DNA from: an uncultured bacterium
GTDB lineage: Bacteria > Lernaellota > Lernaellaia > Lernaellales > Lernaellaceae
Direction: 5' to 3'
Length of the DNA stretch: 47,804 nt
Assembly (NCBI GenBank): GCA_964534375.1
Contig: CAZHPN010000022.1
Span: 1 to 47,804, forward strand
Shown: positions 19,221 through 46,929 of the stretch, one piece after another
How positions within the stretch are numbered: the first letter of the stretch is position 1
Layout of the letters: the number at the start of each line of letters is the position of its first letter
Notes under the pieces: generated by a model
Database searches by the model: none
The model's input: only the letters and a program-made list of their open reading frames with translations
Told to the model about the DNA's origin: nothing
Translations under genes and position numbers: made by a program

Positions 19221-19569
19221 GGGGGCGATACGGTTTCGACGGGAGGATCCGCGGGTACGACCGGCGCGCCGAGGTCCGGTGGCCTCGTTAAACTGCCGGA
19301 CGGCATTAATTGCCAACAATAATTACGCAATGGCTGCCTAACTAAGGCAACCCGTCTCTCTCGCTCGTGTTGGCGGGGAGGGAAGAGGCGTCGTAACAGT
19401 CAACTAGCTTAGCAGGGCTCGCCCGGGCGCTGCGAGGCGAAAGCAATCGGGCTCGGACCAATGAACCTTGTTCGTGGGGGTCGGCGGTCTCAAAACCAAA
19501 TCACGAACTACGCTCGTAGACGGCGTATCCAAAGCCTTTCGGACGCGGGTTCGACTCCCGCCGCCTCCA
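19221..19569 (+). ncRNA. ssrA: tmRNA; tag peptide (A)ANNNYAMAA at 19312-19341
   Basis: 5' GGGGGCGATACGGTTTCGAC and 3' GCGGGTTCGACTCCCGCCGCCTCCA give a G3:U70 acceptor stem. Internal tag ORF ends YAMAA-TAA. Confidence 0.97.
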
Positions 19570-19628
19570 TCATCCTATCTTATTGATTTTACGCGGTTTT
19601 TTGTTGCGTCACCCCCTCGCTTGGAGGG

Positions 19629-19650
19629 AGTGTAACAGAAAGTGTAACAG
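19629..19650. repeat. Tandem AGTGTAACAG repeats, probable integrase arm-type sites
   Basis: Exact 10-mers at 19629-19638 and 19641-19650, between ssrA and the integrase stop. Confidence 0.65.
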
Positions 19651-19687
19651 GTTTTGTTCCGCGTGAGCATGAGTTTGCCCCTCCAAA

Positions 19688-20818
19688 TCAGCGGTTTTCC
19701 ACCGCTGGCGTGAGCCCCGTGTACAGTTGCATGACGGCTTGATCCAGGGCTTCCGGAGATAGGTGTGCGTAGCGCATTGTAGTCTTGATGTCCTTGTGTC
19801 CGAGCAGTTTTTGAACCTTGTACAGGGAGACGCCACGGATCACCAGTTGACTGGCGAAGCTGTGGCGAACGTCATGGAAACGAATCGTCGGTAGGCCCGC
19901 CATTCGCATGACCCTGCGAAAAGCCCCTTTGACGCGGTTCTCGTCGAGGTACTTGGCCCCCCGGTAAGGGAACACGAGGTCGCCTTGCAGGTGCCGTAGT
20001 TCTCGGTACTTCAGCAGCGCTGCCCGTGCTGACGGATGCAGCGGCAGTTCCCGAGAGTCTACGCCCTTCGGCGTATCCAGATGTCCCTTGTAGACCGCCC
20101 GATCAACGATCACGACGCTGCGCACGAAATCAATTTGATCCCAGGTCAGCGCGGCGAGTTCGCCCAGCCGCATACCGGTCGTGAAAGCCAGCATGAAGAA
20201 TGGATGCCAATCCGGTTCGATTTTCCCGCAGATGTCGAGGAATGCTGCGGACTGCTTCTCGTCGTAGTAGTGGAAGCTATCTTTTGGCGTCTTGAACATG
20301 TGGACTCGCTCCATCACGTTTTCCTCGATGTAGCCGTTCTCTTTTGCCGCTCGGAACATGGATTTGAGCACCCCGATCATGTTGTTGATCGTCTTCTTGG
20401 ACAGACCTTCGTCCACCTTCTGGCGCATGAAGCGTTGGACATCCTCGGGCCGAATTGCCGCGAGGTCGCAGTTCCCGAAGAACGGGAACAGGTGCACGCG
20501 GACAATCGACTCCTTGCGGATTTGCTCGGAGTATTTCCAACTCGCGCGGTAGTTTTCCAGCCATTGCCTTGCCCAGCCGCCGAACGGGATTTCCTCATAT
20601 TGGATCACCCCTGTTTCGGCTGCCGGATCGTTTAGACCCTCGACAAAGCCTTTGGCTTGCAACTCCCGGTGCCATTTACGCCCCAGTGCCAGAGCCTGTT
20701 TCTGGTTCTTTCCTGCTCCAGTCGAACGGTGCCACCTTTGGACGTTTCCGTTCTTGCCGCGGTACGTGAAGTCCACGTACCAGATTCCGTTCCGTTGCCG
20801 GAGATTGATCTTGCCCAT
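19688..20818 (-). CDS. Tyrosine recombinase / phage integrase
   Basis: TGMRLGE, TPKG, FHDVRHSFAS, LLGH and TTMRYAH catalytic residues; N-terminal arm-binding region. Confidence 0.96.
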   Translation of the reverse strand: MGKINLRQRNGIWYVDFTYRGKNGNVQRWHRSTGAGKNQKQALALGRKWHRELQAKGFVEGLNDPAAETGVIQYEEIPFGGWARQWLENYRASWKYSEQIRKESIVRVHLFPFFGNCDLAAIRPEDVQRFMRQKVDEGLSKKTINNMIGVLKSMFRAAKENGYIEENVMERVHMFKTPKDSFHYYDEKQSAAFLDICGKIEPDWHPFFMLAFTTGMRLGELAALTWDQIDFVRSVVIVDRAVYKGHLDTPKGVDSRELPLHPSARAALLKYRELRHLQGDLVFPYRGAKYLDENRVKGAFRRVMRMAGLPTIRFHDVRHSFASQLVIRGVSLYKVQKLLGHKDIKTTMRYAHLSPEALDQAVMQLYTGLTPAVENR

Positions 20819-31339: not shown

Positions 31340-32716
31340 TTAGGATGCGGCTAAGACACTGGGTATAGCCGGGCGAGTGGGGCGCTGTCCCACGGTCGCT
31401 CTCACAATACAATTACTGACATCACCAGTCACCGTGGAATGGTGCGCTTCGCCCGACGCGACTCGCACGGCCTGTGTGATGGCGAGCGCGCCAGCAAAAG
31501 CGCTGACGAATGGAACGGCAACGCTACTGCCGGCAAGGATAGCGGCACCGCATCGACCCTCTTCGTTGTTACGGACGATCTCCTGGTAGGCAGGGAGCTC
31601 CATCAGCCGCGTGGTCGTGGTGGCCGTTGCATCTTCGTCGTCTTCAAAATGTTGGCAGGGGTTCATTTTGGAATCTGCGGTGTCGAAAACGTTGATCCGT
31701 ATCTTCTGGAAATTTGCAGCCGTCGCGCCGAGCCCAGCATCGATCACGTATTCGAATTTAGGGAGCCCGAGCCAGCGGCGCGGTCGCATGCTATCCAGGC
31801 CGGCTAACGCGAGCAAAGGCTCCTGATCTGTGCGCCGTAAAGTTTCGTCGAACCGGCGATCGATGCGGCGCACGCAAAAACCCCTCGCCTCCGCCCATTC
31901 CTCTGCGATGCGGGTCTTGAGTGGGCCATATCGGCCGCGACGGACCAATATTGATGTCGCCCAGTTTTCCTCTTTGACGATATCGTCATCCTGGAGAAAA
32001 AGAAGCACATTGTTGGGCGTCGGATACGGCAGCATGGAAAGTGACCACAGAAACGCCTGGCCGAGATTGCCGAGCCCTATTAGCCAGAGCTGTAGGGGCA
32101 GGTAGCATTGCGACTGCGGGGGGCCAGGGTCGTAAAGGGTGCTATCGGGTGACCAAAGCGACAGAGTTTGCGGTATCCTTCCGGCTTCCGCATGATCTTG
32201 CTCGGCCATGAAAGCCTGGCCGATGGCGAGTGCACCGGCCGCGACGCCGGCGAGAAGACAATCGCTGCGGCCGTTCGCCCTAGGTGTGCGGCCAGGCGTG
32301 ACGCCTGCGACCCATCCGTCCCAAAATGCTTGAACCGACCAGGTGCTGCGATGGTTCAAGACTGGGCCAATGAGAACGGCCCGGTTTGGGAAGGGATCGC
32401 CCACGACAGCGCCGAGCTCGTAAGCCGCAGCCGCAAGATTACTGGCCGGAAGTGGGAGAGGGAGAAGCAACGGGCGATCGACCTGCCCGTGAACGCTAAC
32501 TTTCCCCTTCCCGAAGCAGCGAACAGCCGTGACCGTGGCCGTGAGAAAAGCTGCTTGCCCCGCCGGCGTGTCGGCCGCTTCGCTCGCGAGAAACAGGGAG
32601 AGGCCGGAGTTGGCGAATTTCTTGCCTGCTTCGGCAAAGGAATAGCGGCCGGAATTCACTAGCGTGAGAAGGACGCGCGAGGTCTCGGAATCGATTTCGA
32701 TTGGCGTCGTTGTCAT
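31340..32716 (-). CDS. bilD: E1/ThiF-family ubiquitin-like activating enzyme (BilD-like)
   Basis: IGLGNLG, D.D....N, DAGLG and GRCG..LAG..V.VPFV motifs. ATGA overlap with the JAB stop. Confidence 0.85.
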   Translation of the reverse strand: MTTTPIEIDSETSRVLLTLVNSGRYSFAEAGKKFANSGLSLFLASEAADTPAGQAAFLTATVTAVRCFGKGKVSVHGQVDRPLLLPLPLPASNLAAAAYELGAVVGDPFPNRAVLIGPVLNHRSTWSVQAFWDGWVAGVTPGRTPRANGRSDCLLAGVAAGALAIGQAFMAEQDHAEAGRIPQTLSLWSPDSTLYDPGPPQSQCYLPLQLWLIGLGNLGQAFLWSLSMLPYPTPNNVLLFLQDDDIVKEENWATSILVRRGRYGPLKTRIAEEWAEARGFCVRRIDRRFDETLRRTDQEPLLALAGLDSMRPRRWLGLPKFEYVIDAGLGATAANFQKIRINVFDTADSKMNPCQHFEDDEDATATTTTRLMELPAYQEIVRNNEEGRCGAAILAGSSVAVPFVSAFAGALAITQAVRVASGEAHHSTVTGDVSNCIVRATVGQRPTRPAIPSVLAAS

Positions 32717-33234
32717 TGCGGCCACCATCCGATGTAGAGGGTCCGGGCGCCATGCGCGCTGTGGTCGCGCCACTGGCGCGCGCCGAGATATTCGTACACA
32801 CCGACTTCTCCTGGTAGGTGATTGCATGCGGCGTAATCGGGGACGATGAGCGCGAAATGGCCGAGTTCCGCGATCATGGGATTCTGGCGGTCGGTTCGGC
32901 TCTGGCTGTAATGACCGGGATGGACGTGCACATCGGCCACGACACTCATTTTCAAAGCGCGACATTTTGCCCAGACCAGGCCGAACTTGCTACCGTCGAA
33001 CTCGACGATGCCATTGGCGAAGCAATTTGGATCGACGTCGTCGTAGTAGAGGAAGTGCTGGATTCTTCGAGTACGTCGGTTGGCGTTGCCGAGAAGGAAG
33101 GCACCGCTCTCGCGCCTGCCAGCGGCTCGCCGTTTCAGTTCCTCGACGCCCTGGTTCCAGATGCGTGGGCTACAAACCAGCTTCGGGGGCCGGCCGAGAG
33201 CCGCGCGCAGCAGCGTTGGAAGTGAGAAGACCAT
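32713..33234 (-). CDS. bilC: JAB/JAMM metallo-isopeptidase (BilC-like)
   Basis: RESGAFLLG and VHVHPGHYSQSRTD (E...HxH...S..D). Confidence 0.88.
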   Translation of the reverse strand: MVFSLPTLLRAALGRPPKLVCSPRIWNQGVEELKRRAAGRRESGAFLLGNANRRTRRIQHFLYYDDVDPNCFANGIVEFDGSKFGLVWAKCRALKMSVVADVHVHPGHYSQSRTDRQNPMIAELGHFALIVPDYAACNHLPGEVGVYEYLGARQWRDHSAHGARTLYIGWWPQ

Positions 33235-33673
33235 GCAAATCCTCCAAGATGAAAGCGATTTCACGCTTAGGATTCCAGGCGAGGTTGGGGTGCGCCTGCG
33301 CCCAGTTGTTATGGGCACCGCTTGCACGTTCCCAGGGTCGATAAACGGTGTTATGCGGTGCCCAGTTCTTAAAGGCCGCCACCACGCGATCTGACCCTTT
33401 CGGGCGGCGGTTCTCGGCGAGTAGGTCGTTGGTCGCGCAATCCCAGATCTGAACGGCTGGCGCAGTTCCGGGAAATCCGGACAGCTCAAAGTGAAAGAAA
33501 TATTCGCTGGCGGTGCCCTCTGGCTCCACCGCAGCTACCGCCATGATCAGCACGGGAAAAGTATACGATACCACGTGCCAGTACTTACACCGGTCGCCCG
33601 CCTTGAAGCGGGTGGACGCCAAATCGGCGTCCACCGCGCTTTGTGCAGGGTTAGCAAGTCCATCGGGAATCAT
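33170..33673 (-). CDS. bilB: E2-like protein (BilB-like)
   Basis: Position between Ubl and JAB; FP..AP....WD, PKG, and Y.P..R...H.NW...HP...W pattern. Confidence 0.78.
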   Translation of the reverse strand: MIPDGLANPAQSAVDADLASTRFKAGDRCKYWHVVSYTFPVLIMAVAAVEPEGTASEYFFHFELSGFPGTAPAVQIWDCATNDLLAENRRPKGSDRVVAAFKNWAPHNTVYRPWERASGAHNNWAQAHPNLAWNPKREIAFILEDLHGLLTSNAAARGSRPAPEAGL

Positions 33674-34199
33674 CGTTCGCTCCCTGCGGCAACACGCCCC
33701 GAATCAAGTCAAGGGCGAGTCGATGGTGGTGGTGGTGCCCTTCGTGTTGAACGTAGCGGCCGATATGGGCGGTCTTGGGCAACTCGTGAGCGTCCGGAAT
33801 TTTGTCGTGGCGGGCAAGCTCCATCTCTGGTGCTAGGATCGGATCGAGATTAAATCCGTCCTTGCCGACGGCCCAGTCCAGGACACATTGGACGCGGGCG
33901 GACGGGGGAAACCGTTTTTCCTTTTCCAGGTTCTTGTAAAAGACAACGACCGCGATCTCCCGCACTCGATGGACGTGGTGTTTCTTGCGCGCCATGTCGT
34001 CCGTGACGACGATGGCAAGATCCAATGGCTCACCGCAATCTTCGACCAGCAGGATCGCCTCTTCCGCCGGGAAGCCACCCTTCTCGGCGACGGCCACGAC
34101 GATTTCGCGGGCCGTATGGCCCCGAGGAACGGGAATAAATTCGATTCCCTTGAGTGTTTCGCCTTCAACCATCACTTCAATCGTTTGTTCGTCAGACAT
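33651..34199 (-). CDS. bilA: Tandem-domain ubiquitin-like protein (ISG15-like, BilA-like)
   Basis: Two beta-grasp-sized halves linked by HVHR; RFPPSARV..VLDWAV; ends LPQG plus a 9-aa extension. Confidence 0.78.
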   Translation of the reverse strand: MSDEQTIEVMVEGETLKGIEFIPVPRGHTAREIVVAVAEKGGFPAEEAILLVEDCGEPLDLAIVVTDDMARKKHHVHRVREIAVVVFYKNLEKEKRFPPSARVQCVLDWAVGKDGFNLDPILAPEMELARHDKIPDAHELPKTAHIGRYVQHEGHHHHHRLALDLIRGVLPQGANDDSRWTC

Positions 34200-34321: not shown

Positions 34322-34350
34322 AAGCCAAGTTGAACTGGCGGGGTACATAT

Positions 34351-34752
34351 ATGCGTCTCGGCGAACGGATCAAGAAACGGCGAATCGAACTCAATTGGAC
34401 ACAAGACGAGTTATGCCGCCGAGCCAAAATCAGCAAAGGGTTTCTGTCCGATGTCGAAAACGGAAAGCGAAGTATAGGCGCAGAAACCCTCCTCGATCTC
34501 GCTCGCGTTCTTTCGTTGTCCTTAGATTATTTGATGACAGGGGACCCCTCAGAAACGCTTCCGAACGAAGAAATCGAGATACCGGCGGGCCTTGCTCGGT
34601 TCGCAGAACAAGAAGGGCTTTCATTCCGGAATACATTGGCGATGTTGGACATGCAACGCCAGATAATCGCTCACCGAAGCTCCTCAAAGGAAGAAGGTTT
34701 GGACGAAGTTGATTGGCGGAATTTTTACAACGCGGTGAAGGATTACCTGTGA
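34351..34752 (+). CDS. XRE-family HTH repressor (CapH-like)
   Basis: LGERIKKRR..LNWTQDEL...ISKGFLSDVENGKR. Divergent from the defence operon and coupled to a peptidase gene. Confidence 0.88.
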   Translation: MRLGERIKKRRIELNWTQDELCRRAKISKGFLSDVENGKRSIGAETLLDLARVLSLSLDYLMTGDPSETLPNEEIEIPAGLARFAEQEGLSFRNTLAMLDMQRQIIAHRSSSKEEGLDEVDWRNFYNAVKDYL

Positions 34753-35792
34753 GACTCGATCGTGAGCCAGAAGTAATTCGCGTTGCCTCGGAGTTGAGGG
34801 CCGTAGATCAAGGAAACGGACCTGTCCAAGCCGTCATCGATTATTGCTGCGAGAAGGCACGTCGTCTGATTGGCGGATTGAAAATAAGTTCGCTCGCCGA
34901 GTTCGAGCAAGTAATCTGTTCCAGGCTCAAGCTCGTCTTTGAGACGATTTACGACGACCGGGATTTGGATGTTGTTGCGGAAAAATATAGACGCCTCGGA
35001 GAGATCGCTTTCCTTCGAATCAAAACTACGTTCGATCCGGCAACTTTTGCAATCCTTATGGAAAGAAGAAACATTAACGGGCGATCACCTGACAGATACG
35101 TCGCGGTCATCGACTGTCGCGGCGAAAAGGCCCACCGGGCCTACTTCTCTCGTTGGCACGAAATCGCTCACTTGCTTACGCTTAAGCGTCAATTGGAATT
35201 GCCGTTCTATCGATCAACGGGAACGACACCTTCCGAGAAACTGATGGACTCTGTCGCGGGTGAGTTGGCTTTTTTCGCCCCGCTTTTCGGGCCGGTTTTG
35301 GAAAAACACATCCGCGCAAATGGTCTTCTCTCGTTTGGTGTGGTGGATGCCGTGCGCTGGGACGCTTGTCCCGAGTCGAGCTATCAAGCGGCGCTTTTCG
35401 CCTGCTTGAGGCAGACGCCGACGGCGGCATTATTACTTGATGTTGGCCTCGGTCTCACGAGTGCCGAGAAAAAACTTGTCGAATCGAAGTCGCTACCGCT
35501 TTTCCCGGTGAAAGCGCCAGAACCGAGATTGCGGGTGTTAACCGCAAATTCAAGTGCTTCAGCACGCGCCACCGATTTTCGTGTCCATCGGAACATGCAC
35601 GTCCCTGCCGAATCCATAGTCTCGCAGCACTACGAGGACACGAAAGACTCGCCCATTGATACTGGCGCCGCGGGTCTGGAAGACTTTTCTATCTGGCGTC
35701 ATTCCGATGGACGGTCCGTCGGCGAGGGCCAGATTCGCGTCGAGGCAAGGCGCTTCGGCAATCAATTCCTCGCGTTGATCACACGGCCCTAA
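34749..35792 (+). CDS. ImmA/IrrE-family metallopeptidase (CapP-like)
   Basis: RAYFSRWHEIAHLL (HExxH) with downstream E. GTGA overlap with the HTH gene. Confidence 0.82.
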   Translation: MRLDREPEVIRVASELRAVDQGNGPVQAVIDYCCEKARRLIGGLKISSLAEFEQVICSRLKLVFETIYDDRDLDVVAEKYRRLGEIAFLRIKTTFDPATFAILMERRNINGRSPDRYVAVIDCRGEKAHRAYFSRWHEIAHLLTLKRQLELPFYRSTGTTPSEKLMDSVAGELAFFAPLFGPVLEKHIRANGLLSFGVVDAVRWDACPESSYQAALFACLRQTPTAALLLDVGLGLTSAEKKLVESKSLPLFPVKAPEPRLRVLTANSSASARATDFRVHRNMHVPAESIVSQHYEDTKDSPIDTGAAGLEDFSIWRHSDGRSVGEGQIRVEARRFGNQFLALITRP

Positions 35793-36259: not shown

Positions 36260-39025
36260 CTAAACCAACTCAAACCAGCCGGCGAGGCGAGCGGAAAATG
36301 CGCCGGTATTGTCCGCAATGCCGCGGTGGCGAAGTTCACGCTGAAGCATCGGCTCCAGGTGGTCCCGCAGGATTTGGCGCCGTTGGGCAATATCGAATGT
36401 GGGAGCGGCGGGCGCACCGTGCATCAGCTTGTCGGCCTGTTTCTCCCACGAGGGCATCCGCGTTCCGTCCGGCCGCGTGGCCAGCGGGACCAGATAGAGC
36501 CGTTGCTCGCCCTTTGCCGTGTTGCTCTCGACCATCCACCAGGACAGCACGCCGGCGCCCTGGCCGTCGCTCTGCACGGCCACGCCCAACTCTTCGGGCG
36601 GCAGACCTCTCCAACGCTCCAAAGCCTGCTTGATGACCGGATGGTCGATGCCGAGCAGGTCCACATCATCGCGCTCGCGGGCGAGGTCACGGTTCGTCGT
36701 GAAGCGCACGATCATCTCCGCGTTCGGCCCGCGCAATTCATAGACCTCATCCGTAATCTTGACGATCTTCTGTCCCTGATCCGCGGTGGCCGCACCCAAG
36801 AACCGCACGAGTCGGTCGATGCCGGCCTCGATGTCGGCGAACGGCTTGTAATCCTCCAGGCTGAACCCCTCCAGGTCCTGGAAAAGCTCGAAGACGACCT
36901 GCCGCGCCTCCTTGGCATTCGACAGAGCCGCCTCCAACTCAAGCTGTGTCCGCTTCAATTCCGGGTCCGACAACGCATCTTGGTACAGCCGCTCGTAGCT
37001 CAGCTTCTCCGCCAACTGGCCTAGAATCTGCGAGCGCAGGTCTTCCGCGACGTTGCCCTCGTCGTCCACCTTGCCCAAGGCGGTGGCGATCTCCTTCAAT
37101 TTGTCTTCCAACAACAGGAAAATCCGGCCTTCGATGGTGTCGGAAAGCACAAGGTTATACACTTGGGCGGTATGTAGCTGTTTGTAACGATGAATACGGC
37201 CGATGCGTTGTTCAACGTCCATCGGGTTCCACGGCAAATCGAAATTGAACAGGACGCGAGCGGTCTGAAGGTTGATGCCTTCGCGGCCGGCTGCGGTGCA
37301 GACGAGCACCTTGGGGCCTTCCGGCGCTCGGAACCGGCGCTCGGCTGCGACCTTGGCGCCGTGATCGCCGCCTTTGAGCACTACTACTCCCTGGCCGGGA
37401 TAGTCCGCGTCGATTTCCCGGCCGATCAGGTCCACCGTGCCCAGGTACGTGGCGAACACGACCACCTTCTCGTTCGGGTTGATGCGCCACAAAGCCCCAA
37501 GAGCCGCGAGGAGCTTCTCGACCTTGGTTTCCCGCTCGGCTGCCGGCGTGGCGAGCAATTCTTCGATACGCTGGCGCTCCTGGGGCAAGGCCAGACTGAT
37601 CGCGGCTGCGGCAACATCCTCGGCATGAGCGGTGGCAAATTCCGACGAATAGGGGTCCGCGGCCATCTTCAGTTCGTCTTCGTCCAGCTTTTTCAGAATC
37701 TTGATCTTGGAGTCGGCCAACACGCGGTCCACCTGACCGCGCCCAATCGGGTCATCGCCAAGGCCGTACTCTTCCCGAATTAGAACACGGGCCTCATCAT
37801 AAAGAGCTTGGCGGCCGTCAATATCGAGGTCCTGGTCCCGCAAGATCGCCTCGTGCAGGGTCAGATTCAGCAGACGCCGCCTGAGTGTGCGCCGGACGGC
37901 CGCAAAGCTAGAGGCGGCGATCTTCTGGAAGATGGCCATCACGAAACCCAGGCTGCGCCCCTTGTTGCCCTGGCGCTTCGCAAGAGCAAAGCCGTCCTCC
38001 AGGTATTCCCGCAGCCGGTCGTAGAACACACGCTCGGTATCCGACATTAGGAACGATTCGGTATGCACTTGGCGGCGGGCAAACAGCGCCGAGCCGTCCG
38101 GCTTGCAGGAGTCGGCCTTGGTGCGCCGATAGACGACCGCATTGAGCCGGTGCCGGTTCTCCACCATGTCTTCGGGATGTTTGAACAGCGTCGGATTCAG
38201 AAGCTGGACCAACATCCAGAACCGGAAGTGGTCGCCCTGGTGCGGCGTCGCCGACAGCATGAGCATGTCGCGGCAATGCGACCGCAACGCCTCAGCCAGT
38301 TTGTAGTTCTCGGTCTTGGTGACTTTCCGACCGCTTCGATAGGCGGACAGGTGGTGCGCCTCGTCAAAGACGATCAGGTCCCACGGCGGCGCTTCCAGAA
38401 TTTTTCGCAGTCGGGCGGGCCGTTTGAGCGTGTCGATGCTGGCGATCAAGAAGTCATGCTTGGCAAAGGCGTTGGATCTCCGGTCGGTGACATCGCCCTC
38501 GCTGCCGAACATTTCAAAGTCGAGGTTGAAGACTTCGTTGAGTTCCAGATACCAGTTGTTCACCAGACCGGCCGGAACAACCATCATGGCCCGCTTCAAT
38601 TCGCCTCGGCTGGTCAACTCGCGCAGCAGCAGCGCCGTTTCGATGGTCTTGCCCAACCCGACTTCATCCCCAATCAGGTAACGCCGCGGCGAGGCCGTGG
38701 CGATCCGGTGCGTCAAAACCACTTGATGAGGCAGCACGTCAATCTTGGCGGCTGTCAATGCCGCCGCGCTCTCCATCAGCGGCAACGAGTGTGCTTCACA
38801 GGCCAGCCACGCTTTCCGCAGACGCTCCGCTGTGCCCTGGACGCCGGCGAGGATGCGTTCCTTGTACGGCGTCTCCCAACGGACGGAAGAAACCGGGACG
38901 ACCTTCTCGCCGACGGCGAAAAAGACGCGCACATAGCCGTCCTGCGGCTGGTCGATGATGACGCCATTGCCGAACTCGACGTGGTTGATGCGTTGACCCG
39001 GTTGGATGGTCAGAACGTCTTCCAT
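36260..39025 (-). CDS. SNF2-family SF2 helicase (BrxHII-like)
   Basis: DEVGLGKT, DEAHH, SATPH, EGINLQ and EQRIGRIHR. ATG overlaps the upstream stop. Confidence 0.92.
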   Translation of the reverse strand: MEDVLTIQPGQRINHVEFGNGVIIDQPQDGYVRVFFAVGEKVVPVSSVRWETPYKERILAGVQGTAERLRKAWLACEAHSLPLMESAAALTAAKIDVLPHQVVLTHRIATASPRRYLIGDEVGLGKTIETALLLRELTSRGELKRAMMVVPAGLVNNWYLELNEVFNLDFEMFGSEGDVTDRRSNAFAKHDFLIASIDTLKRPARLRKILEAPPWDLIVFDEAHHLSAYRSGRKVTKTENYKLAEALRSHCRDMLMLSATPHQGDHFRFWMLVQLLNPTLFKHPEDMVENRHRLNAVVYRRTKADSCKPDGSALFARRQVHTESFLMSDTERVFYDRLREYLEDGFALAKRQGNKGRSLGFVMAIFQKIAASSFAAVRRTLRRRLLNLTLHEAILRDQDLDIDGRQALYDEARVLIREEYGLGDDPIGRGQVDRVLADSKIKILKKLDEDELKMAADPYSSEFATAHAEDVAAAAISLALPQERQRIEELLATPAAERETKVEKLLAALGALWRINPNEKVVVFATYLGTVDLIGREIDADYPGQGVVVLKGGDHGAKVAAERRFRAPEGPKVLVCTAAGREGINLQTARVLFNFDLPWNPMDVEQRIGRIHRYKQLHTAQVYNLVLSDTIEGRIFLLLEDKLKEIATALGKVDDEGNVAEDLRSQILGQLAEKLSYERLYQDALSDPELKRTQLELEAALSNAKEARQVVFELFQDLEGFSLEDYKPFADIEAGIDRLVRFLGAATADQGQKIVKITDEVYELRGPNAEMIVRFTTNRDLARERDDVDLLGIDHPVIKQALERWRGLPPEELGVAVQSDGQGAGVLSWWMVESNTAKGEQRLYLVPLATRPDGTRMPSWEKQADKLMHGAPAAPTFDIAQRRQILRDHLEPMLQRELRHRGIADNTGAFSARLAGWFELV

Positions 39026-39546
39026 TAGGAAATCCTGTGCAGGTGCAGCCCGATCCAGCCGGGACCGTCGGCGTCCTGGTTCGTCGCATCGGGATTCATG
39101 ACGCGGCAAACATCCTTCTCGGCGCCGCCCCAGAGGAGTCGGCCGATCGGTAGGTCTTGATTGCGGTACGGCTGGGCGCAACGCCAGGAGTAGCATTCCG
39201 TGGGAAGGTTCATGTTGATGCGGTCGCGGCCAGAGGGAATCCAGAGTATCAGGCTCGCCTCCGATTGATATTCATACTGAAAACTCAGAATGGCGGGCTT
39301 TAGATCACGCTCCAACCACGTTTCGGCGTCTTCGGGAGTCAACGTGTCGAGGCATCCCTCCAGGCCGGCGACGATGAGCGTCGAACTCTTGTTGCTGGGC
39401 AAATCCTCCGGCCACTTCCGGGCCATCTCGAAAAAGACGCGGATGGAAACGACCTCGGAAGGGGCGGCCAAGTTCGCCAGCGTCTCGCCATCCCACAGGA
39501 GGGAAAAGCCCCGCCGCGTCCATGATTGGTCTTTTAGTAGCTGCAT
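39025..39546 (-). CDS. Hypothetical protein of the DUF499 operon (possibly degenerate ATPase-like)
   Basis: 173 aa, tightly coupled between the methylase and helicase. LIVAGLE resembles a Walker-B strand; no Walker A. Confidence 0.75.
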   Translation of the reverse strand: MQLLKDQSWTRRGFSLLWDGETLANLAAPSEVVSIRVFFEMARKWPEDLPSNKSSTLIVAGLEGCLDTLTPEDAETWLERDLKPAILSFQYEYQSEASLILWIPSGRDRINMNLPTECYSWRCAQPYRNQDLPIGRLLWGGAEKDVCRVMNPDATNQDADGPGWIGLHLHRIS

Positions 39547-39552
39547 GACGGC

Positions 39553-42500
39553 CTACTCCCCTTTGTCTCCGAATTGCATTTCCAGTTGAACAAGCTTCTC
39601 CCGGTTCGTCCGCGCCCAGGTTTGGTAGATCACCTGTGCTCGTGTCGCCGCATTCCGAATCTCATTGGTCGCGCCGCGTTTGATGTGCCATTCGAGCAGC
39701 GCCGCCAGAGCCGGGTGCGGCCGGAAATTCTCGTTCTTCAGCGTGTCGGCGGCGTTGATGCCGCTGTTTTCAAAGCACGCGCCGATCAGGAACATGGCCT
39801 GGTCGTAGTCCGCCGTCATGCCCTGGCGGCGACGACCGTGCCACGTCTGCGCGATATCTCGCGGCGAGCCGAGGTGGTAAACCTTGCCCTCCTCCCTGCA
39901 CCAGCCGCGGTCTGCGAACTCGTTAGGGGCGATGCCGGTCCCCTTGAGAAACTTTTGCATCTGGTCCCGCGGCTGTTCAGTGCAGCCCTCGAAGATGCGG
40001 AGAAACTGCCGCGTAAATGGCTCTGCGGTGACGGGCGGCGGCTGTTTGGCCTTGCCGGATTCTTCGTCGAGAAGCTGGTTGATGCCCAGGAGCGCATCGC
40101 GGACGGTAAACTCGCGGCCCTCGTCCACGTACACCTTGCCGTAGTGCCGGGAAAAATATTCCAGCGCCTTGCCGCGCTTGATGACCTGGAGATCGGCCGG
40201 GAGCAATCCTGCTTTGGCATGGTGTTCAAGGAGAGACTTCAACTGCTGAACATCATCCAGCACCTCGCGCCGCATTCGTGCCCAACTTACGGGCTTCGGT
40301 TCCTCGGTACGCTTTCGGCAAACATGGATGATGTCGTACTCGATCTGCTTGGAGCCGAATTCACCTTCGCCTTTTGTCTCGTCGCTGCGAATCGGATAAG
40401 TCGCTTCGAGGTAGAAGCCGGTGTCGAAAAGGCTCTCCAGCACGGCCACCCACGGCGCATCTTCACTATGGTGAAACGTGAAGCAGAGGAGGCCGCCCGG
40501 TTTGAGAATTCGGTGCGCCTCACGCCAGCATTGCGTAAGGAGCCGCTTGTAGAAACCGTCGGGATTTTCAGGCTCACGAGCGCGGTTGGACACGACCTCC
40601 AATGCCTTGGGCGTGTACTCTGCCGTGAAATTATCTGGGTATTGAGCTTTGAGCACCAACCGCAACCAGACGTAGAAGAAGTCCGAAAGTTCGGAGTAAT
40701 GGAGAAGACCACCAAACGGAGGATCAGTAATCACCAGATCGAACGATCCGTTAGCAAGCGAAACAAGGTCGGTCGCCGAGACACTAACAACCTCATGAGC
40801 GCTGAGGATCGGGGGGTCTCCGCACAGAACCTTTGAACTCTTGCCGGTCAGGCCATTGGCGATTGTTGGAGTCGTTGCGTCAAGCCATTCCGTGCTTACG
40901 AGTTCCCACGGGTCTTTTCGCCATTGCAACCCCTTGAAGAGCGCCTCAAACGTCGATGACCACGGCCCATAACCCATGGGACTAAACACCCCAACTTCGA
41001 TTACCGTTGACTTCGGATGAAAATTTGGATTGGAAAGCGCTGGTGCTAACTTGTCGTATGTCATGTGCCAAAATGACAGCATACATTGATTTCGCAAATA
41101 TTGCTGAAATGCACCAAGCACATATTCCCGCGCTTCCCATCGGTGTGGGGGCCCTCCCACTCGAACAATCGACCGCAGAAGCTGTGTATGCCCAAGAAGT
41201 TGGCGCGAGTTGAACATCCTCCACCAGTGCGTGAAGCCGTGATTGGGGATGCCTCCGTTGAGCAGGTGCGTCATGAAGCCGTATGGCAGCTCACTTCGTG
41301 GCCAGTAGTCTTTGAGGTCTGTTTCGTTTCGTGAGGCCCACTCGTGTACGGCGGCGTCGAACGCCGAGGTGTCGGTGGCGGGGGAGAAAAAACGGCCGCC
41401 ATACGGTCGGCTTTCACGGTCACAGGCGGGGCAGTATCCCTGGATTGCGTATGCAGCGACCGGGCCAGTTTTCCCGGAGCGTTTGACTGTTTCCAATACG
41501 TCCTGCACGGTCCCGCAGGCGCCACATGCGTAGTGTGACTTTCTTGGCACGGTCCCTTTGTTCGTCGAGAAGGTGATCTTCGTGGCCGGGCAGGTGATCT
41601 CAGCCGGCAAGGCACCGCGGACCTCAACTAAGCGCATGCTCCGAGCACGTTCACGGTTCCATGCGGTTATTGGCCCAGGACCATCCTGGGAGCTTCCACC
41701 GTAATCTTGCCCGTCGGGTCCGACTTTGGGCGAGCCTTTTAGCCAGAATGGATGGACCAGTAACGTGAGGTCGATTTTCTTGTTCTTCCCCTTGCCCAGC
41801 GACGGTTCAATCCGGTGTTTGCAATGCGGACAGACCGCTCCGCGAGTCGTATCGAGGATGGCGAAAGGCTTCTCACCGGCGGCGACCACCAAAGGAACTC
41901 CAGGAGCCATCCGTGCCTCGGCCGCCTCAATATCAAACGGCTTATGGCATCTTGGACACTCATAGTCCTCCCAGGTTTTCACAGATAGCGTCTTCACGGC
42001 CATAACGGGGCTCGACATGATCGGTGTGCGATGGCCACAGCCGGTGACTTGGCAGGGGCCATGCTTCGCCCAGAAGACATAGATGATCTCCGGCCCCTCG
42101 TAGCTGTAGTCCAGACGCTGTTCGGGCGTCAGGGTCAGGGGATCGAAGCCCTTGCCCATGACCTTGCCGGTCGAAACGTGGGTCCATTTGCCCTTGTGGC
42201 CGCGTGGGCATTCGCAGGCGTAAAACGGCATAATTTTTGGCTTGACCTCGGCCTCGATGTCGGCGAGGAGCGCCTCCACTTCTTCCTTGGTCACCTTGGC
42301 GAACTCGTTCTTGACGACGAACCAGGCGACGGGGTTTAGGTCCGTTCCCCACATCTGCATACCGAGCCGCGAGCCTTCCACCAGAGTTGTCCCGCCGCCC
42401 ATGAAAATATCGGCCACCTTCAAGCGCGAGAGGGCGCCTTTCTTCTGGTGGTTGGCGTAGTACACATCCCATACCGCCTTGGCCGCCTGCGCCGGGTCTT

Positions 42501-42780
42501 CGGGTGCTTTCATCGCGGCGGCCAGCAGCATGGCGCGGAACACGCTCGACCGGCGCCGCGCCCACCACTTCGACATCTGGTAGATCGGCTTGCCGGCGTT
42601 GCCCTCGATTTGCGCGATCTGGTTGATGGGCAGCAGCGGGAAATCCACTTCCAGACAGGTCGGCGGCCGGTTCGGGTCATTGAAATCGACCGTCTCGACG
42701 GCAACATTTTTTCCCGCGCCGACCGTATCGGCGATTTGTTGAGCGAGCGACTTCCCACCATTCTTTACTGCACGAGCCAT
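39553..42780 (-). CDS. DUF1156-type amino-DNA methyltransferase with Zn ribbons
   Basis: KWWARR, DIFMGGG (SAM binding), TDPPF (catalytic motif IV) and several CxxC pairs. Confidence 0.9.
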   Translation of the reverse strand: MARAVKNGGKSLAQQIADTVGAGKNVAVETVDFNDPNRPPTCLEVDFPLLPINQIAQIEGNAGKPIYQMSKWWARRRSSVFRAMLLAAAMKAPEDPAQAAKAVWDVYYANHQKKGALSRLKVADIFMGGGTTLVEGSRLGMQMWGTDLNPVAWFVVKNEFAKVTKEEVEALLADIEAEVKPKIMPFYACECPRGHKGKWTHVSTGKVMGKGFDPLTLTPEQRLDYSYEGPEIIYVFWAKHGPCQVTGCGHRTPIMSSPVMAVKTLSVKTWEDYECPRCHKPFDIEAAEARMAPGVPLVVAAGEKPFAILDTTRGAVCPHCKHRIEPSLGKGKNKKIDLTLLVHPFWLKGSPKVGPDGQDYGGSSQDGPGPITAWNRERARSMRLVEVRGALPAEITCPATKITFSTNKGTVPRKSHYACGACGTVQDVLETVKRSGKTGPVAAYAIQGYCPACDRESRPYGGRFFSPATDTSAFDAAVHEWASRNETDLKDYWPRSELPYGFMTHLLNGGIPNHGFTHWWRMFNSRQLLGHTQLLRSIVRVGGPPHRWEAREYVLGAFQQYLRNQCMLSFWHMTYDKLAPALSNPNFHPKSTVIEVGVFSPMGYGPWSSTFEALFKGLQWRKDPWELVSTEWLDATTPTIANGLTGKSSKVLCGDPPILSAHEVVSVSATDLVSLANGSFDLVITDPPFGGLLHYSELSDFFYVWLRLVLKAQYPDNFTAEYTPKALEVVSNRAREPENPDGFYKRLLTQCWREAHRILKPGGLLCFTFHHSEDAPWVAVLESLFDTGFYLEATYPIRSDETKGEGEFGSKQIEYDIIHVCRKRTEEPKPVSWARMRREVLDDVQQLKSLLEHHAKAGLLPADLQVIKRGKALEYFSRHYGKVYVDEGREFTVRDALLGINQLLDEESGKAKQPPPVTAEPFTRQFLRIFEGCTEQPRDQMQKFLKGTGIAPNEFADRGWCREEGKVYHLGSPRDIAQTWHGRRRQGMTADYDQAMFLIGACFENSGINAADTLKNENFRPHPALAALLEWHIKRGATNEIRNAATRAQVIYQTWARTNREKLVQLEMQFGDKGE

Positions 42781-42785
42781 TTGAA

Positions 42786-43784
42786 TCAGGACCTCTTCCG
42801 CGCCAATTCGATGAACGGCGAAATCACTTCCAGAACGGACAAGCCGCCGTGGGCCAAGGTCGGGTAGCCGCCTTGGCTTTTCCACTTCCGACGCCCGACG
42901 ACATAACGATTCTCGCCATGCCGCGAAGCGACCACGAGGTCCAGCGGCGGTACGCACGAGGAACCAGCGCCGTTGACGGCCGCATGACGACTGCTCTTGA
43001 ACATGTTCTTGAGCTGTTTGGCTTGGTCTTCGGGCGTGTCGGGAAACAGCCCGGTGGCCGCATAGCCGTGATCGGACGTGATGACGAGGCGACGGCCGGT
43101 GGTGAGGCGGTCGATCAATTGCCAGAAGTCGTCGCTGGTCAGTTGGGTAGCGGCCTCCTGGGCGAGCATCTCGACGCCCTTGCCGGCGCCGGACCATTCA
43201 TGGACCTTGTTGTCCGGCCACTGATGCCATAGGACCCACCGCGGCTCGCCGGCAATCAACCCGGCGCAATCTTTCCAGGGGACCGCGACCGTATCGGTGT
43301 GTGCCTTGGCAAGGCGATTCGTGGAAGGCGCTCCGTTGTTTTCCAGGGCACCCCGTTCACCGTAACCGAGTGCTTTGGCGAACGGGGTGGTGTCGGCGGG
43401 AAGCTCCGCCGCCATCGGCTTCGCGGTCACCAACTCGTATCCTCGCGCCTGGGCGCCGTGGATGATCCAAGGAGCCTCGCGCAATGAAAGCGCGTCGAGG
43501 ACCAGAACCGCTTTTCCGCCATCCTGGTTCTTCCACCAATCGGCCAGCGCGTCGGTCGTATGCTCCGTGCATCCTTCAAAAGTGGTCCAGAGGTCCCATC
43601 CTGCGGAGGCAAGAAACAAGTCGAGTGCGGCAATTTCACGGTCGCGCTTGCTCACCTCGCCGGCCGGATTTTTGGCTGTGATTGGCTTCGTGCAGATTTC
43701 CCAGGCGTGATTGAAAATAGTTTTCCAGGCGTCTTTCGGCTTGTTCCGGGAAAGCTTGCGGAGAAGGTCGAGAGGCAGTGCCAT
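42786..43784 (-). CDS. Short PglZ-like alkaline-phosphatase-superfamily protein
   Basis: LVLDALSLRE, LP..T, VITSDHGY and HGGLS..E motifs. Confidence 0.82.
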   Translation of the reverse strand: MALPLDLLRKLSRNKPKDAWKTIFNHAWEICTKPITAKNPAGEVSKRDREIAALDLFLASAGWDLWTTFEGCTEHTTDALADWWKNQDGGKAVLVLDALSLREAPWIIHGAQARGYELVTAKPMAAELPADTTPFAKALGYGERGALENNGAPSTNRLAKAHTDTVAVPWKDCAGLIAGEPRWVLWHQWPDNKVHEWSGAGKGVEMLAQEAATQLTSDDFWQLIDRLTTGRRLVITSDHGYAATGLFPDTPEDQAKQLKNMFKSSRHAAVNGAGSSCVPPLDLVVASRHGENRYVVGRRKWKSQGGYPTLAHGGLSVLEVISPFIELARKRS

Positions 43785-46504
43785 CAGACCTCCTCCTTTT
43801 CCAACGACAACTCGTAGGTTAGGCCGTCGGGCAGGCCCCGCAGCAGCTTTGAAAGCTGAGCGCCGGTGGCTTTGCTGATTTTCAAGTTCACGTCCCGCAC
43901 GGTAACGCCCGGTCCGATGCCCCATTGGTCCCCAGCTACGCTCATTAGGTTCAGGCCTGAATTGGGGTCCGCGTGGCAAGGTTTGACGGTCGGGGCGCTC
44001 GTTCCGGTCGGGAAAATATCAAGCCTAGTGATGGGCTTGGTCCCCGTCGCGGTTACGCCGGCAGGCGGCTGCACGGCGCCCGGTTGTCCGTTTCCGGTTT
44101 CGGCGTTGGGCGGCAGAACCACTGTGGCCGCGGGGGCGACGGATTGCGTCTGCGGCACGGCCTGCGGCGTGACGAGTGAAGTCTCGTCAAGATGTTTGCC
44201 CGTGATCTGACTGAGTTTGTTCCTCATGCGGTTGTAGGCCGCTTCTTCGGCCTCGCCAGTTTTGGCTTGCAGATACTCGGTGCCGCGAAGATTGATGGCG
44301 ATGAGTCCGCGGGCGCACAACCAGACGATCTTTTCCTTCATCAGGGTTTCGCCGAGCCATGGGATGCAGGTCTTCTGGTTGGGCCGAGGCTCCTGGAGTT
44401 CGCGGAGCAGTTTGCCAAGGGAGTCGTTGGCGACGGCCGCCTCGTTGACCATTTCTTCGAAATCTTCTTGGGCGAAAATGTTGGTCCTGATGGTTTCTTC
44501 CATGGCTTCCGGCGCTTGGCTGCCGAGCTTGGCGAGCGGTTCCGGTTGTTGGAACTGACAACGGTCGGGATGTTCGTAATCCCAGACCAGAAGCACCGTA
44601 AAGCGGTCGAAACGCTCCTTGATGATGCGGCGCAGTTCACGTTGGTATTTGGCTTTCAACTCTGTGTATTCGCGGCTCTGGATTTCCCATTCCTGGGCCT
44701 TGAGCACCGCACGGGCCAGCACGATCAAGTCCCGGTCGGCATACATATCCGTGCTATCGGCCTTGGGCAGCAGGAACCGCACAGTGTTGCGGCGATTTTG
44801 AAGATGTTCCTTCAACCAAGCGCCGAGGCGCTCGTGTAATTTGTCCGGTTCTTCCGGCAGCACGACGATCGGCAGCCGGTCCCCCCAGTTCGCGGGTCGA
44901 ACGTCGTCTTCCACATCTGTCCAGGGATCGGTGAGCCAATTGGGCGGCAGAACGATGACACAGAAGCCCCTTGGCACATCATCGCCGCCGCCGATCACGT
45001 ATCGGACTTCCTTGGCCAGTCGGCGGTGATCGCGGCCATCGGTGAACAGCCGGTCGTTGCGGGCCGACGCCATCAATTTGGCCTGGGGGTTCTCCTCCTC
45101 ACGGAAAATGAACTTGTCGCCATACTCATGGATGTTGAAACTATTTTCGATGATGGTCGCCATCTCAGCGTGAAAGGCGTTGTCATCCACAGGCGTCTTC
45201 TTGCTGATGTCGATGTGCAACGTCGCCCGGTCGGCCCCGGCGAGGTTGCCGACGGCCAGTGAACGAAGCCACAGGGCGCTGACGATCTCGGCAAGGTGCG
45301 GAACAAGCTTCTCCGCCGACGGCACGGCATCCTCGACGGCCTTCAAGTTGCGCTGGGCCTTGTCGCGTAACGCGGCGTGGTCTCGATTGGCAACCGAGTC
45401 GAGCAACGTGGCGATGCTGGTGTTCTCATCGTCAAGGCGAAAGTCTGCGGCAGTTAGGAGCGGTTCGTTAGCGCCGTGGGTTTTGAAAAGATCGGCCAGG
45501 ATGCGGATCAGGTCGCGGGTTTCCTGGGCGCTCGTTGCCACCAGAACCTGGTCCTCCAAAAGCTGCATAAGATGGGGGGCGAAGGGCCACATCTCGATGA
45601 ACTCGTCGCTGCGGCGGTCCCGGTCCGCAGGCGGAATCTCCGCCAACCGGAAGTATTCCGAGATGTGCGGCGCGATCAGGCGCGCAATATCGTCGGCCGG
45701 AATGTTCATCCGGTTTTCGAAGAGGCGGTGGAGCAGGAGCCGGCGCCGATCCTGCTCGGCGTACTTGCCTTTGAAATCAATGAGAATCGGGTTCACACGA
45801 TGAATCTGTTGGTACGCTTCGGTGTTGCCGTCACGCACAGAGACTACCAACACGAGCAGTTCGGGGTGTTCCTTGGCGATTTCCGACAGAATCTGAATAA
45901 AGTTGAAAGCCCATTGTTTCCACGGATACTGCTTGGTGTTGGTCAGGCCGTCGTACCAAGTCTGGAATTCGTCCAAGAGGAGCGCCGTGGGTTGCTTCTT
46001 GAACATTTCCAACACGAGGCTCGCCGGCATCACGTCGGACTTCTTCGAGCCGCCAGCCTCCCACTTGCCGCGGATATATTCGCCCGCCGGGTGGTTGTCC
46101 AGCAGCAGGTCCCACAGGTACCTGTATTCCTGGCGATGCAGGCTTTCGCTGATGACGTGCATTACCGGCCTTAGCGGGATAGCTGCTGCCTTATTATTGT
46201 GCAGCCGGGAGGCCCAGGATTGCAGCCACGCCTTGGTTGCGGCGGGGTCGGTCAGGGCGTGATAAAGGACGGCCAACAGGTGCGACTTGCCAAGCCCGCG
46301 GTCGCCGATCAGCACGACCGGCCGACCTTGGTCCGGCCCAATGGCCTCCACAGCCTTGAGCAGGTCGAACGACGGGTACGTGATCTCTAAAAACTCTGCG
46401 GCCGGCACCTGCGTGGCTCCGGTTTTCCTGTCGTTCTTCAACTCAATTGCGGTGCCCTTCAGGCGCTTTCCAAGGAATTCCTTCCGCAGTTTCAGTTCGA
46501 GCAT
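43784..46504 (-). CDS. DUF499-family AAA+ ATPase (BrxC-related)
   Basis: FLEITYP, Walker A GDRGLGKSH, Walker B LLLDE, and WPFAP. Confidence 0.85.
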   Translation of the reverse strand: MLELKLRKEFLGKRLKGTAIELKNDRKTGATQVPAAEFLEITYPSFDLLKAVEAIGPDQGRPVVLIGDRGLGKSHLLAVLYHALTDPAATKAWLQSWASRLHNNKAAAIPLRPVMHVISESLHRQEYRYLWDLLLDNHPAGEYIRGKWEAGGSKKSDVMPASLVLEMFKKQPTALLLDEFQTWYDGLTNTKQYPWKQWAFNFIQILSEIAKEHPELLVLVVSVRDGNTEAYQQIHRVNPILIDFKGKYAEQDRRRLLLHRLFENRMNIPADDIARLIAPHISEYFRLAEIPPADRDRRSDEFIEMWPFAPHLMQLLEDQVLVATSAQETRDLIRILADLFKTHGANEPLLTAADFRLDDENTSIATLLDSVANRDHAALRDKAQRNLKAVEDAVPSAEKLVPHLAEIVSALWLRSLAVGNLAGADRATLHIDISKKTPVDDNAFHAEMATIIENSFNIHEYGDKFIFREEENPQAKLMASARNDRLFTDGRDHRRLAKEVRYVIGGGDDVPRGFCVIVLPPNWLTDPWTDVEDDVRPANWGDRLPIVVLPEEPDKLHERLGAWLKEHLQNRRNTVRFLLPKADSTDMYADRDLIVLARAVLKAQEWEIQSREYTELKAKYQRELRRIIKERFDRFTVLLVWDYEHPDRCQFQQPEPLAKLGSQAPEAMEETIRTNIFAQEDFEEMVNEAAVANDSLGKLLRELQEPRPNQKTCIPWLGETLMKEKIVWLCARGLIAINLRGTEYLQAKTGEAEEAAYNRMRNKLSQITGKHLDETSLVTPQAVPQTQSVAPAATVVLPPNAETGNGQPGAVQPPAGVTATGTKPITRLDIFPTGTSAPTVKPCHADPNSGLNLMSVAGDQWGIGPGVTVRDVNLKISKATGAQLSKLLRGLPDGLTYELSLEKEEV

Positions 46505-46615: not shown

Positions 46616-46929
46616 TGATCACGCGAAGCACGACCTATCGAGGAGAAGCCTGCCGTGTATTGCCGCGACACGCGCTGGGTACCGTGCTGCCGCATCGGCC
46701 GTAACGAGAAGATATCGAATATGGTCGCCTACTGTCGTTTCCACTTGCTTTTGCCTTTTTTTGGCGGCGCGTTTCCGTATATGATGGGTACCAAGGCGAA
46801 AGACTATGCCGTTGGTCTAAATTGCGCAACGGCGGACGCAGCGGGGTTACGGCAAAGCTATTTTTTTTGAACGCCGCGAGGAAGCGACAGGCGACGGGTC
46901 TTTCCCGAACGCGAGGAGAGGGAGTGGTC

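Follow-up and report, generated by a model that had tools for sequence, protein, structure and literature searches.

Type I Bil operons encode a bacterial ISG15-like system (Millman, 10.1101/2022.05.11.491447; Hor, 10.1101/2023.09.04.556158). Bil is described as a Cys-to-Cys relay (10.1101/2023.09.04.556158, 10.1101/2023.09.26.559546, 10.1101/2022.05.11.491447, PMC11601596, PMC11601603), and the E2 Cys is termed highly conserved in Type I as well as Type II systems (10.1101/2023.09.26.559546). Here we analysed a contig of 47,804 nucleotides (nt) from an uncultured bacterium of the Lernaellota (CAZHPN010000022.1, assembly GCA_964534375.1, positions 1 to 47,804; hereafter the window). Its minus strand carries, at 31340-34199, a predicted Type I Bil-like anti-phage operon, BilA-BilB-BilC-BilD, in which the E2-fold protein BilB has Trp at the place of the Bil Cys. 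This protein belongs to a clade-wide, selected, Cys-less Bil E2 variant found in otherwise complete operons, and whole clades of Type I BilB lack the Bil Cys, carrying Trp, Tyr, Phe or an aliphatic residue instead. We found no paper on a Cys-less Type I BilB; operon tables in supplements may contain such members. Bil is the bacterial pathway closest to eukaryotic ubiquitination, and five Bil operons are already known to give defence.

With the characterised Type I BilABCD the window operon shares the four genes and their order, the BilB family and its loop, the E1 Cys, the Gly of the ubiquitin-like protein (Ubl) and the JAB Asp. It differs in that the characterised system needs Cys113, where Trp stands here and throughout the clade, in the low identity of the two BilB proteins (29%), in a 9-residue tail after the BilA Gly, and in a CapH-like helix-turn-helix (HTH) gene and an open reading frame (ORF) with a HEIAH motif upstream. 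The Type II BilB of Ensifer aridi (CEHH, Metal_CEHH PF14455; 8TYZ, 8TZ0) is the best structural match to our BilB model, also has an E2 fold without the helices that canonical E2s carry at the C terminus, and is also paired with a BilD-type E1 (10.1101/2023.09.26.559546). C138 and H151 are present in the Type II protein, for whose crystal a contact between the E1 Cys and the E2 Cys is described, whereas the window BilB is without the Bil Cys. HMMER gave no sequence match between the window BilB and Type II BilB, while Atlas clusters mix DUF7665, the Pfam family of the window protein, with Metal_CEHH. Metal_CEHH was found in 0 of 17 genomes of the window's phylum and, above the cut-off, in 0 of 401 genomes of one sampled class, which gave one 21-bit fragment.

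Bub operons, which are bacterial E1/E2/Ubl operons, are alike in having an E2 that lacks a Cys and yet conjugates (PMC11601596). They differ in their invariant E2 Ser, an E1 Tyr without a Cys and a DUF6527 protease, where the window has Trp, an invariant E1 Cys and a separate JAB protein. Ubiquitin E2 variant (UEV) proteins (Mms2, Uev1a, TSG101) have a UBC fold without the catalytic Cys and are non-catalytic partners in ubiquitin transfer, working beside an active E2 (Ubc13) or binding ubiquitin. The Cys-less UBC fold is alike, but neither the operon nor the 94%-complete genome yielded a Cys-bearing E2, in a search with mostly silent controls. Archaeal SAMP/UbaA and Thermus TtuB/TtuC carry out E1-driven conjugation of a Ubl to lysine without a thioester E2; these systems have no E2-fold protein and their E1 also serves sulfur transfer, whereas the window has the E2-fold BilB.

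Tryptophan at the position of the E2 cysteine

The bilB gene (33170..33673, minus strand) encodes a 167-amino-acid (aa) E2-fold protein that falls in a Trp-type clade of DUF7665/BilB (PADLOC BilB, E 1.7e-49; Pfam DUF7665, E 3.3e-30, 105.1 bits against a gathering cut-off of 27) and has the shared loop Y-x-P-x-[DE]-R..H..W. In the window this signature loop reads Y111-R-P-W114-E-R-A-S-G-A-H121 (33311..33343), with residues 110-116, VYRPWER, lying within ..NTVYRPWERASGAH... W114, which stands where the characterised Type I BilB has Cys113, is encoded by TGG at 33334-33332 on the minus strand (33332..33334), and the only Cys residues of the protein are C29 and C79. An earlier note on this DNA had listed the loop, the codon and the two Cys, all of which can be read directly from the sequence and the ORF translation. 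Four sequencing runs, each from a different study, have contigs that cover the W114 codon, with zero differences; one of these runs may be the source of the window DNA.

The same note had given LYLPCDR as the usual form of this segment and had aligned W114 with the Bil Cys by eye. This motif proved to be real, as the motif of Cys-type BilB members, and the alignment was borne out by BLASTP, which placed W114 on Cys113 of a Cys-type member. That member, L021, was among the loci of the five genomes matched when DUF7665 was searched in 401 genomes of one bacterial family. Its BilA has 163 aa and ends in Gly (G163), its BilB (161 aa, motif LYIPCDR) contains Cys113, its BilC has Asp115 in the JAB motif and its BilD has Cys385. 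Because these four residue numbers equal those of the mutants of the characterised Type I system, G163L, C113A, D115A and C385A (Hor, 10.1101/2023.09.04.556158), L021 was taken as the counterpart of that operon. The characterised operon is that of Collimonas sp. OK412, with which L021 is equated by residue numbers and without a named Collimonas match in the Cys-type profile search.

The window and L021 BilB proteins are 29% identical (BLASTP, E 5e-22), with W114 on C113 and H121 on the His that follows. The same W114/C113 column was recovered by MAFFT and by hmmalign; in total, W114 coincides with the Cys that is invariant in Cys-type members by BLASTP and in three multiple alignments. The spacing from R116 to H121 in the window BilB is one residue shorter than in Cys-type BilB. 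A second Cys stands five residues before the Bil Cys in 59% of Cys-type BilB, as in L021, whose BilB gene (L021:3999-4484) encodes C108 and C113; the Trp clade has Thr at the C108 position.

Tryptophan is conserved across a clade under purifying selection

We aligned the window BilB with its 119 best relatives, which are 54-77% identical to it (the close set, n=120). Residue 114 is Trp in 119 of these sequences and Gly in one, well above what chance would yield, and no column of the close set holds a conserved Cys. At the C79 column Cys occurs in 41/120, the others being mostly Leu, Pro, Val or Thr; the C29 column is Arg in 118/120 and Cys in one, so that the C29 substitution is unique to the window BilB. 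A scan of species genomes, queried with alignment A1 as the family-wide alignment A2 was too diverse, gave 14 loci in metagenome-assembled genomes (MAGs) labelled Acidobacteriota, Nitrospirota, Alphaproteobacteria and Betaproteobacteria. In 13 of them BilB can be read, and each of these has Trp and the order BilA-B-C-D. A metagenome scan seeded with BilD returned 562 relatives, and among its best 80 loci 63 had a BilB, 31 of Trp type, 31 of Cys type and one of Phe type, in a ranking that favours relatives of the window BilD and includes one locus (L025) that is likely to be the window DNA itself. Across the window and the genome and metagenome loci, Trp is present in 48 of 48 W-type BilB proteins.

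In a tree of 110 family representatives the window's clade comprises 18 rows, all with Trp, at a support of 99 in the Shimodaira-Hasegawa-like approximate likelihood ratio test (SH-aLRT). The ratio of nonsynonymous to synonymous substitution rates (dN/dS) over 76 pairs of 39 Trp-type genes had a median of 0.21 and a maximum of 0.58; the Trp clade is under purifying selection.

Two side observations concern single copies within the clade. The window BilB departs from its relatives at three near-invariant Arg positions, where it has C29, H33 and H61 (codons 33587-33589, 33575-33577 and 33491-33493; Arg in 118, 107 and 101 of 120, respectively). At one locus in a Bryobacteraceae MAG (L015, 3834-5410) the first part of BilA and BilB were matched and the 4 kb downstream gave no match to BilC or BilD, which suggests that the operon is broken there.

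Cysteine is a minority state at residue 114 across the sampled family

We searched 1.84 billion representatives with a profile and obtained 374 matches, of which the best 150 were aligned with the query and 127 had an intact loop. In these 127, residue 114 is Cys in 35, Trp in 29, Tyr in 22, Phe in 17, Val in 7, Met in 5, Leu in 4 and Ile in 4, with Gly, Thr, His and Ser once each; the aliphatic residues (Val, Met, Leu, Ile) together make up 20/127. Additional searches brought in a further 118 Cys-type clusters, together with 45 of a Tyr type reading FYHPYDR; these counts are no census, because the searches were seeded with Trp-type, Cys-type and mixed profiles. Across the sampled family Cys is thus a minority state at residue 114, which the earlier note had not foreseen. 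Of the 92 representatives without Cys at 114, 21 lack Cys entirely, and the alternative column richest in Cys holds it in only 23.

In the 92 rows of the tree outside the window's clade the residue-114 classes are mixed. By parsimony Cys at 114 needs 14 changes, at least three of which are forced by well-supported branches, and the Tyr, Phe and Leu types share one subclade. Holding all Cys types as one clade cost 74.8 log-likelihood units in the approximately unbiased (AU) test; the p-AU of 0.0445 is marginal and, since the group was named after the tree had been seen, too weak to prove many independent switches. Residues Y111, P113, [DE]115, R116, H121, W124 and W133 are constant in every residue-114 class, a constancy that is conditioned for the Tyr and Arg of the loop, which were used to select rows. 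T109 is Thr or Ser in 110/120 of the close set, and elsewhere in the family this column is mostly Ala or Cys. Residue 118 in the close set is Ser in 59, Gly in 35, Ala in 25 and Thr in 1 (n=120).

Judged by these alignments, residue 114 fits better as a hydrophobic site than as a nucleophile, because its spectrum is C/W/Y/F/V/I/L/M and because the Tyr, Phe and Leu types are mixed within one subclade. Two residue-114 types can also occur side by side: one alphaproteobacterial MAG (G018) holds two Bil operons, L114 of Ile type (LYHPIDR) and L115 of Trp type (VYRPWDR), each with its own Cys-bearing BilD. Viral contigs yielded one Bil locus only.

The E1, the ubiquitin-like protein and the JAB protease are retained

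The gene order Ubl-E2-JAB-E1 is seen in the window, where all four PADLOC Bil models matched, and in 13 related loci. The bilA gene (33651..34199, minus strand) encodes a 182-aa ubiquitin-like protein (PADLOC BilA, E 4.8e-30, residues 5-173 against profile positions 2-162 of 162). G173 (..VLPQG) stands at the end of this match and would be the reactive Gly, followed by the 9-residue tail ANDDSRWTC, while W-type homologs end in ..NG. Type I BilA is characterised by two beta-grasp domains and a C-terminal Gly (G163). In the aligned loci, W-type BilA proteins end in ..P-N-G plus 0-9 further residues. The BilA proteins of the Ile-type locus L114 and the Phe-type locus L085 end in PQG; this ending was not seen in L024, the other of the two Phe-type loci.

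The bilC gene (32713..33234, minus strand) encodes a 173-aa JAB/JAMM peptidase (PADLOC BilC, E 6.1e-64; Pfam Prok-JAB, E 9.2e-5) and overlaps the 3' end of bilB by 65 nt, an overlap that is conserved in related loci together with the gene order. Its active site, HVHPGHYSQSRTD, aligns with HTHPGAGFQSDSD of L021, at the site of D115 in the characterised system, and all 13 loci spanning this part retain the JAB motif ES..HVHP..S..D. The E1 gene bilD (31340..32728, minus strand) matches PADLOC BilD (E 5.2e-125) over residues 92-537 of a 541-aa ORF (31340-32965), in which translation probably begins at M80 or M84. The catalytic Cys (GRCG) is residue 472 of the 541-aa ORF (codon 31550-31552); its counterpart in L021 is C385, and 15/15 aligned BilD proteins share it. 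More broadly, the E1 Cys is present in all 82 readable operons, comprising 43/43 of Trp type, 36/36 of Cys type, 2/2 of Phe type and 1/1 of Ile type. The E1 GRCG, the JAB E...HxH...S..D motif and the Ubl Gly, which the earlier note had described as intact, are indeed so, as Cys472, the kept motif and G173.

Two features of bilD lie apart from this. The 541-aa ORF extends about 80 codons upstream (32729-32965), over bilC in another frame, and tblastn matches to this stretch probably reflect conservation of bilC rather than a longer BilD. A second BilD Cys (ALCGVDN), two residues before the adenylation-site Asp, is present in 30/30 Cys-type and 3/18 Trp-type loci (L057-L103); Trp-type BilD proteins mostly have Ala, Ser or Val there, and the window reads LALAGLD in the region of 32044-32046. 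A functional link between the E2 Cys and this second E1 Cys was considered and rejected, as the position is Phe in two Cys-type operons and Cys in five Trp-type operons.

The window's genome, which is 94% complete, has one DUF7665 gene. No second E2 was matched there by UQ_con, Prok-E2_A/B/D/E or Metal_CEHH, in a search whose controls were silent except for Prok-E2_D.

Predicted fold and the canonical E2 register

The AlphaFold2 (AF2) model of the window BilB, with a mean predicted local distance difference test (pLDDT) score of 84.4, predicts an E2 (UBC) fold; the loop at residues 111-130 has a pLDDT of only 54-67. Foldseek ranked the E. aridi BilB chains 8tyz_C and 8tz0_C best, followed by UBE2K and Rad6. 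VIA aligned 129 residues with 8tz0_C (Z 10.8, root-mean-square deviation 3.6) and gave 236 chains with Z of at least 8, and among the Atlas structures an archaeal UQ_con cluster matched with a template modelling (TM) score of 0.59. At the level of sequence, the window BilB has no HPN motif, no Cys eight residues after it and no UQ_con match. Searches of PDB sequences with the window BilB, profiles A1 and A2, the L021 BilB and the family member P0147 found no E2 chain.

One relative gave a signal for the canonical register. P0155, of Phe type, matched Pfam UQ_con below threshold (E 0.0036) and three canonical E2 chains in phmmer (E 0.0063, 0.64 and 0.99), and all three of these alignments put the canonical [HN]PN..G..C on window residues 86-96, with the canonical Cys on R96. 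The spacings of N88-G93-R96-W104 equal those of what we take to be the UBC signature, and short helices of the model at 87-89 and 95-100 fit this register. The R96 column is Arg in 43-89% of each residue-114 class and Cys in 0/416. The Bil Cys may therefore lie outside the canonical UBC register, on this weak signal for R96 from a single relative; this is the second point that the earlier note did not anticipate. If the canonical Cys does fall at R96, the loop with residue 114 would be an insertion beside the old active site. Against the R96 register stand its origin in the single member P0155, the lack of any match for the profiles, and the crystal of Type II BilB, in which C138 is at the canonical place (Chambers, 10.1101/2023.09.26.559546). 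The surrounding block, L85..[RW]90-P91-x-G93-x2-R96-V97..F101..W104 (33371-33418; R96 codon 33386-33388), is conserved in all BilB classes.

Proposed conjugation without an E2 cysteine

The reading that we favour, with a probability of roughly 0.5, is that BilB is a non-thioester E2 variant and that the Ubl would pass from the E1 Cys directly to the target. BilD would adenylate BilA and then form the E1~Ubl thioester. BilB, forming no thioester of its own, would dock on E1~Ubl as in 8TZ0 and hold the target, and the loop of Y111, [DE]115, R116 and H121 beside the bulky hydrophobic residue 114 would aid attack of the target lysine on the E1 thioester. BilC would trim the 9-residue BilA tail and remove stray conjugates. 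In archaeal SAMP/UbaA the E1 alone conjugates the Ubl, free of any E2. Even in the Cys-type system a Ubl~E2 thioester went undetected (Hor, 10.1101/2023.09.04.556158), and Bil E2s have been proposed to recognise their targets directly, without an E3 (PMC11601596). The Cys-independent route that the earlier note had raised thus survives in this form, as direct transfer from the E1 with the E2 as scaffold, while the Ser that the note had offered as a nucleophile is not supported, as discussed below.

Several points weigh against direct transfer. To our knowledge, transfer from E1 to lysine on an E2 scaffold is unprecedented in Bil. The C113A mutation abolishes defence in the characterised Type I system (Hor, 10.1101/2023.09.04.556158), and C138A abolishes Type II conjugation, in a system where a disulfide between the E1 Cys and the E2 Cys was seen (Chambers, 10.1101/2023.09.26.559546); relatives therefore do use an E2 Cys. 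The low confidence of the modelled loop at 111-130 means that no geometry backs the role given to Y111, [DE]115, R116 and H121. Absence of other E2 families from the genome is not proven, given the silent controls. Finally, the departures at C29, H33 and H61 mean that the window copy could be weakened, degraded or specialised.

A broader proposal, which we put forward tentatively, builds on the R96 register and would apply to Type I BilB as a whole. With R96 at the register of the Cys and residue X of the loop a freely exchangeable hydrophobic, BilB would be no canonical thioester E2 at all and would act as an E3-like platform for direct aminolysis of E1~Ubl by the lysine of a phage protein. 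The loop Y-x-P-X-[DE]-R..H..W would then be a Bil-specific insertion, and the Cys of the characterised system one variant of it and not its essence.

It is also possible, though we consider it unlikely, that the relay is kept in non-thiol form and another nucleophile of BilB takes the Ubl, as an oxyester on Tyr111 or on Thr109/Ser, or as an acyl-imidazole on His121. Bub operons offer a parallel, with a Ubl~Tyr oxyester on the E1 and a Ubl~Ser oxyester on the E2 (PMC11601596); unlike Bub, however, the E1 keeps its Cys here. Every residue-114 class keeps Y111 and H121, but the two are equally conserved in Cys-type BilB, which has a Cys to use. T109, Thr or Ser in 110/120 close sequences, is specific to the Trp clade. 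The Tyr found at residue 114 itself in 22/127 representatives and 45 further clusters could be taken as an acceptor as well, yet the Tyr-114 types are interleaved with Phe-114 and Leu-114 types and a hydroxyl at 114 is therefore dispensable. As for S118, which the earlier note had named as a candidate, Ser occupies this column in only 59/120 and is not conserved.

That the Cys-less operons no longer conjugate appears more doubtful. BilB would then be a pseudo-enzyme acting as a sensor, E1 inhibitor or decoy, or the E1~Ubl or Ubl-adenylate would act alone. The residue on which the characterised system depends for defence is missing and no conserved Cys takes its place, and pseudo-E2s, the UEV proteins, are known in eukaryotes. 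However, these operons retain the E1 Cys, the JAB site and a Ubl Gly followed by a cleavable tail, which is understandable only if forming the thioester and removing conjugates are still of importance, and BilB is under purifying selection in operons with a conserved gene order and bilB/bilC overlap.

The two remaining explanations have next to no standing. The earlier note had considered a one-base TGY>TGG inactivation, and although TGG is one base from TGY and the window BilB has three unusual substitutions at conserved Arg, an inactivation or assembly error in this genome is rejected because Trp is clade-wide (119/120 close sequences and 48/48 W-type operons, with the contigs of all four runs in agreement), under purifying selection (dN/dS 0.21) and found in intact operons in several phyla; Trp is thus neither unique to this genome nor at odds with the sequencing. 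The idea that the alignment is wrong and that C79 or C29 is the thioester Cys draws on the position of C79 after strand beta4 of the model and on its Cys in 41/120, and fails as neither column is conserved (C79 mostly Leu, Pro, Val or Thr; C29 Cys in 1/120 and otherwise nearly always Arg) and four alignments favour W114.

If the Cys-less operons defend against phage, they would conjugate on an E2 scaffold without an E2 thioester or by a new acceptor chemistry, and either outcome bears on the origin of E2 and E3 roles. If they do not conjugate, finders of defence systems, the PADLOC Bil models among them, count many systems whose mechanism is other than assumed.

The surrounding island

Upstream of and divergent from the Bil operon lies a gene for a CapH-like HTH regulator (34330..34752, plus strand; Pfam HTH_3, E 1.5e-14; PADLOC capH, E 9.7e-10), overlapped by a 359-aa ORF with a HEIAH motif (34713..35792, plus strand). 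Pfam, PADLOC, NCBIfam and PDB sequences all lack a match to this ORF, which may be a CapP-like metallopeptidase partner. The earlier note had counted the regulators as intact, which holds for the HTH regulator, while the ORF with the HEIAH motif matches no family. The 14 related genome loci, with flanks of at most 4 kb, gave no match to the pair at E 1e-5.

At 19221-20818 a transfer-messenger RNA (tmRNA) gene stands immediately before one for a tyrosine integrase. Behind the integrase lie genes for a D5-type primase and a PD-(D/E)XK nuclease, then one that is Rad52-like and one that is ArdC-N-like. This places the Bil operon on an island that begins with the tmRNA and integrase genes and is integrated at ssrA. 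An Hma-like helicase/methylase system (36260-46504) adjoins Bil, with an SNF2 helicase (PADLOC HmaA, E 1.9e-91), a 173-aa ORF without a match, a DUF1156 methylase (HmaB, E 2.4e-36) and a DUF499/AAA protein. It is followed by a DUF5131 gene at 46822-47727.

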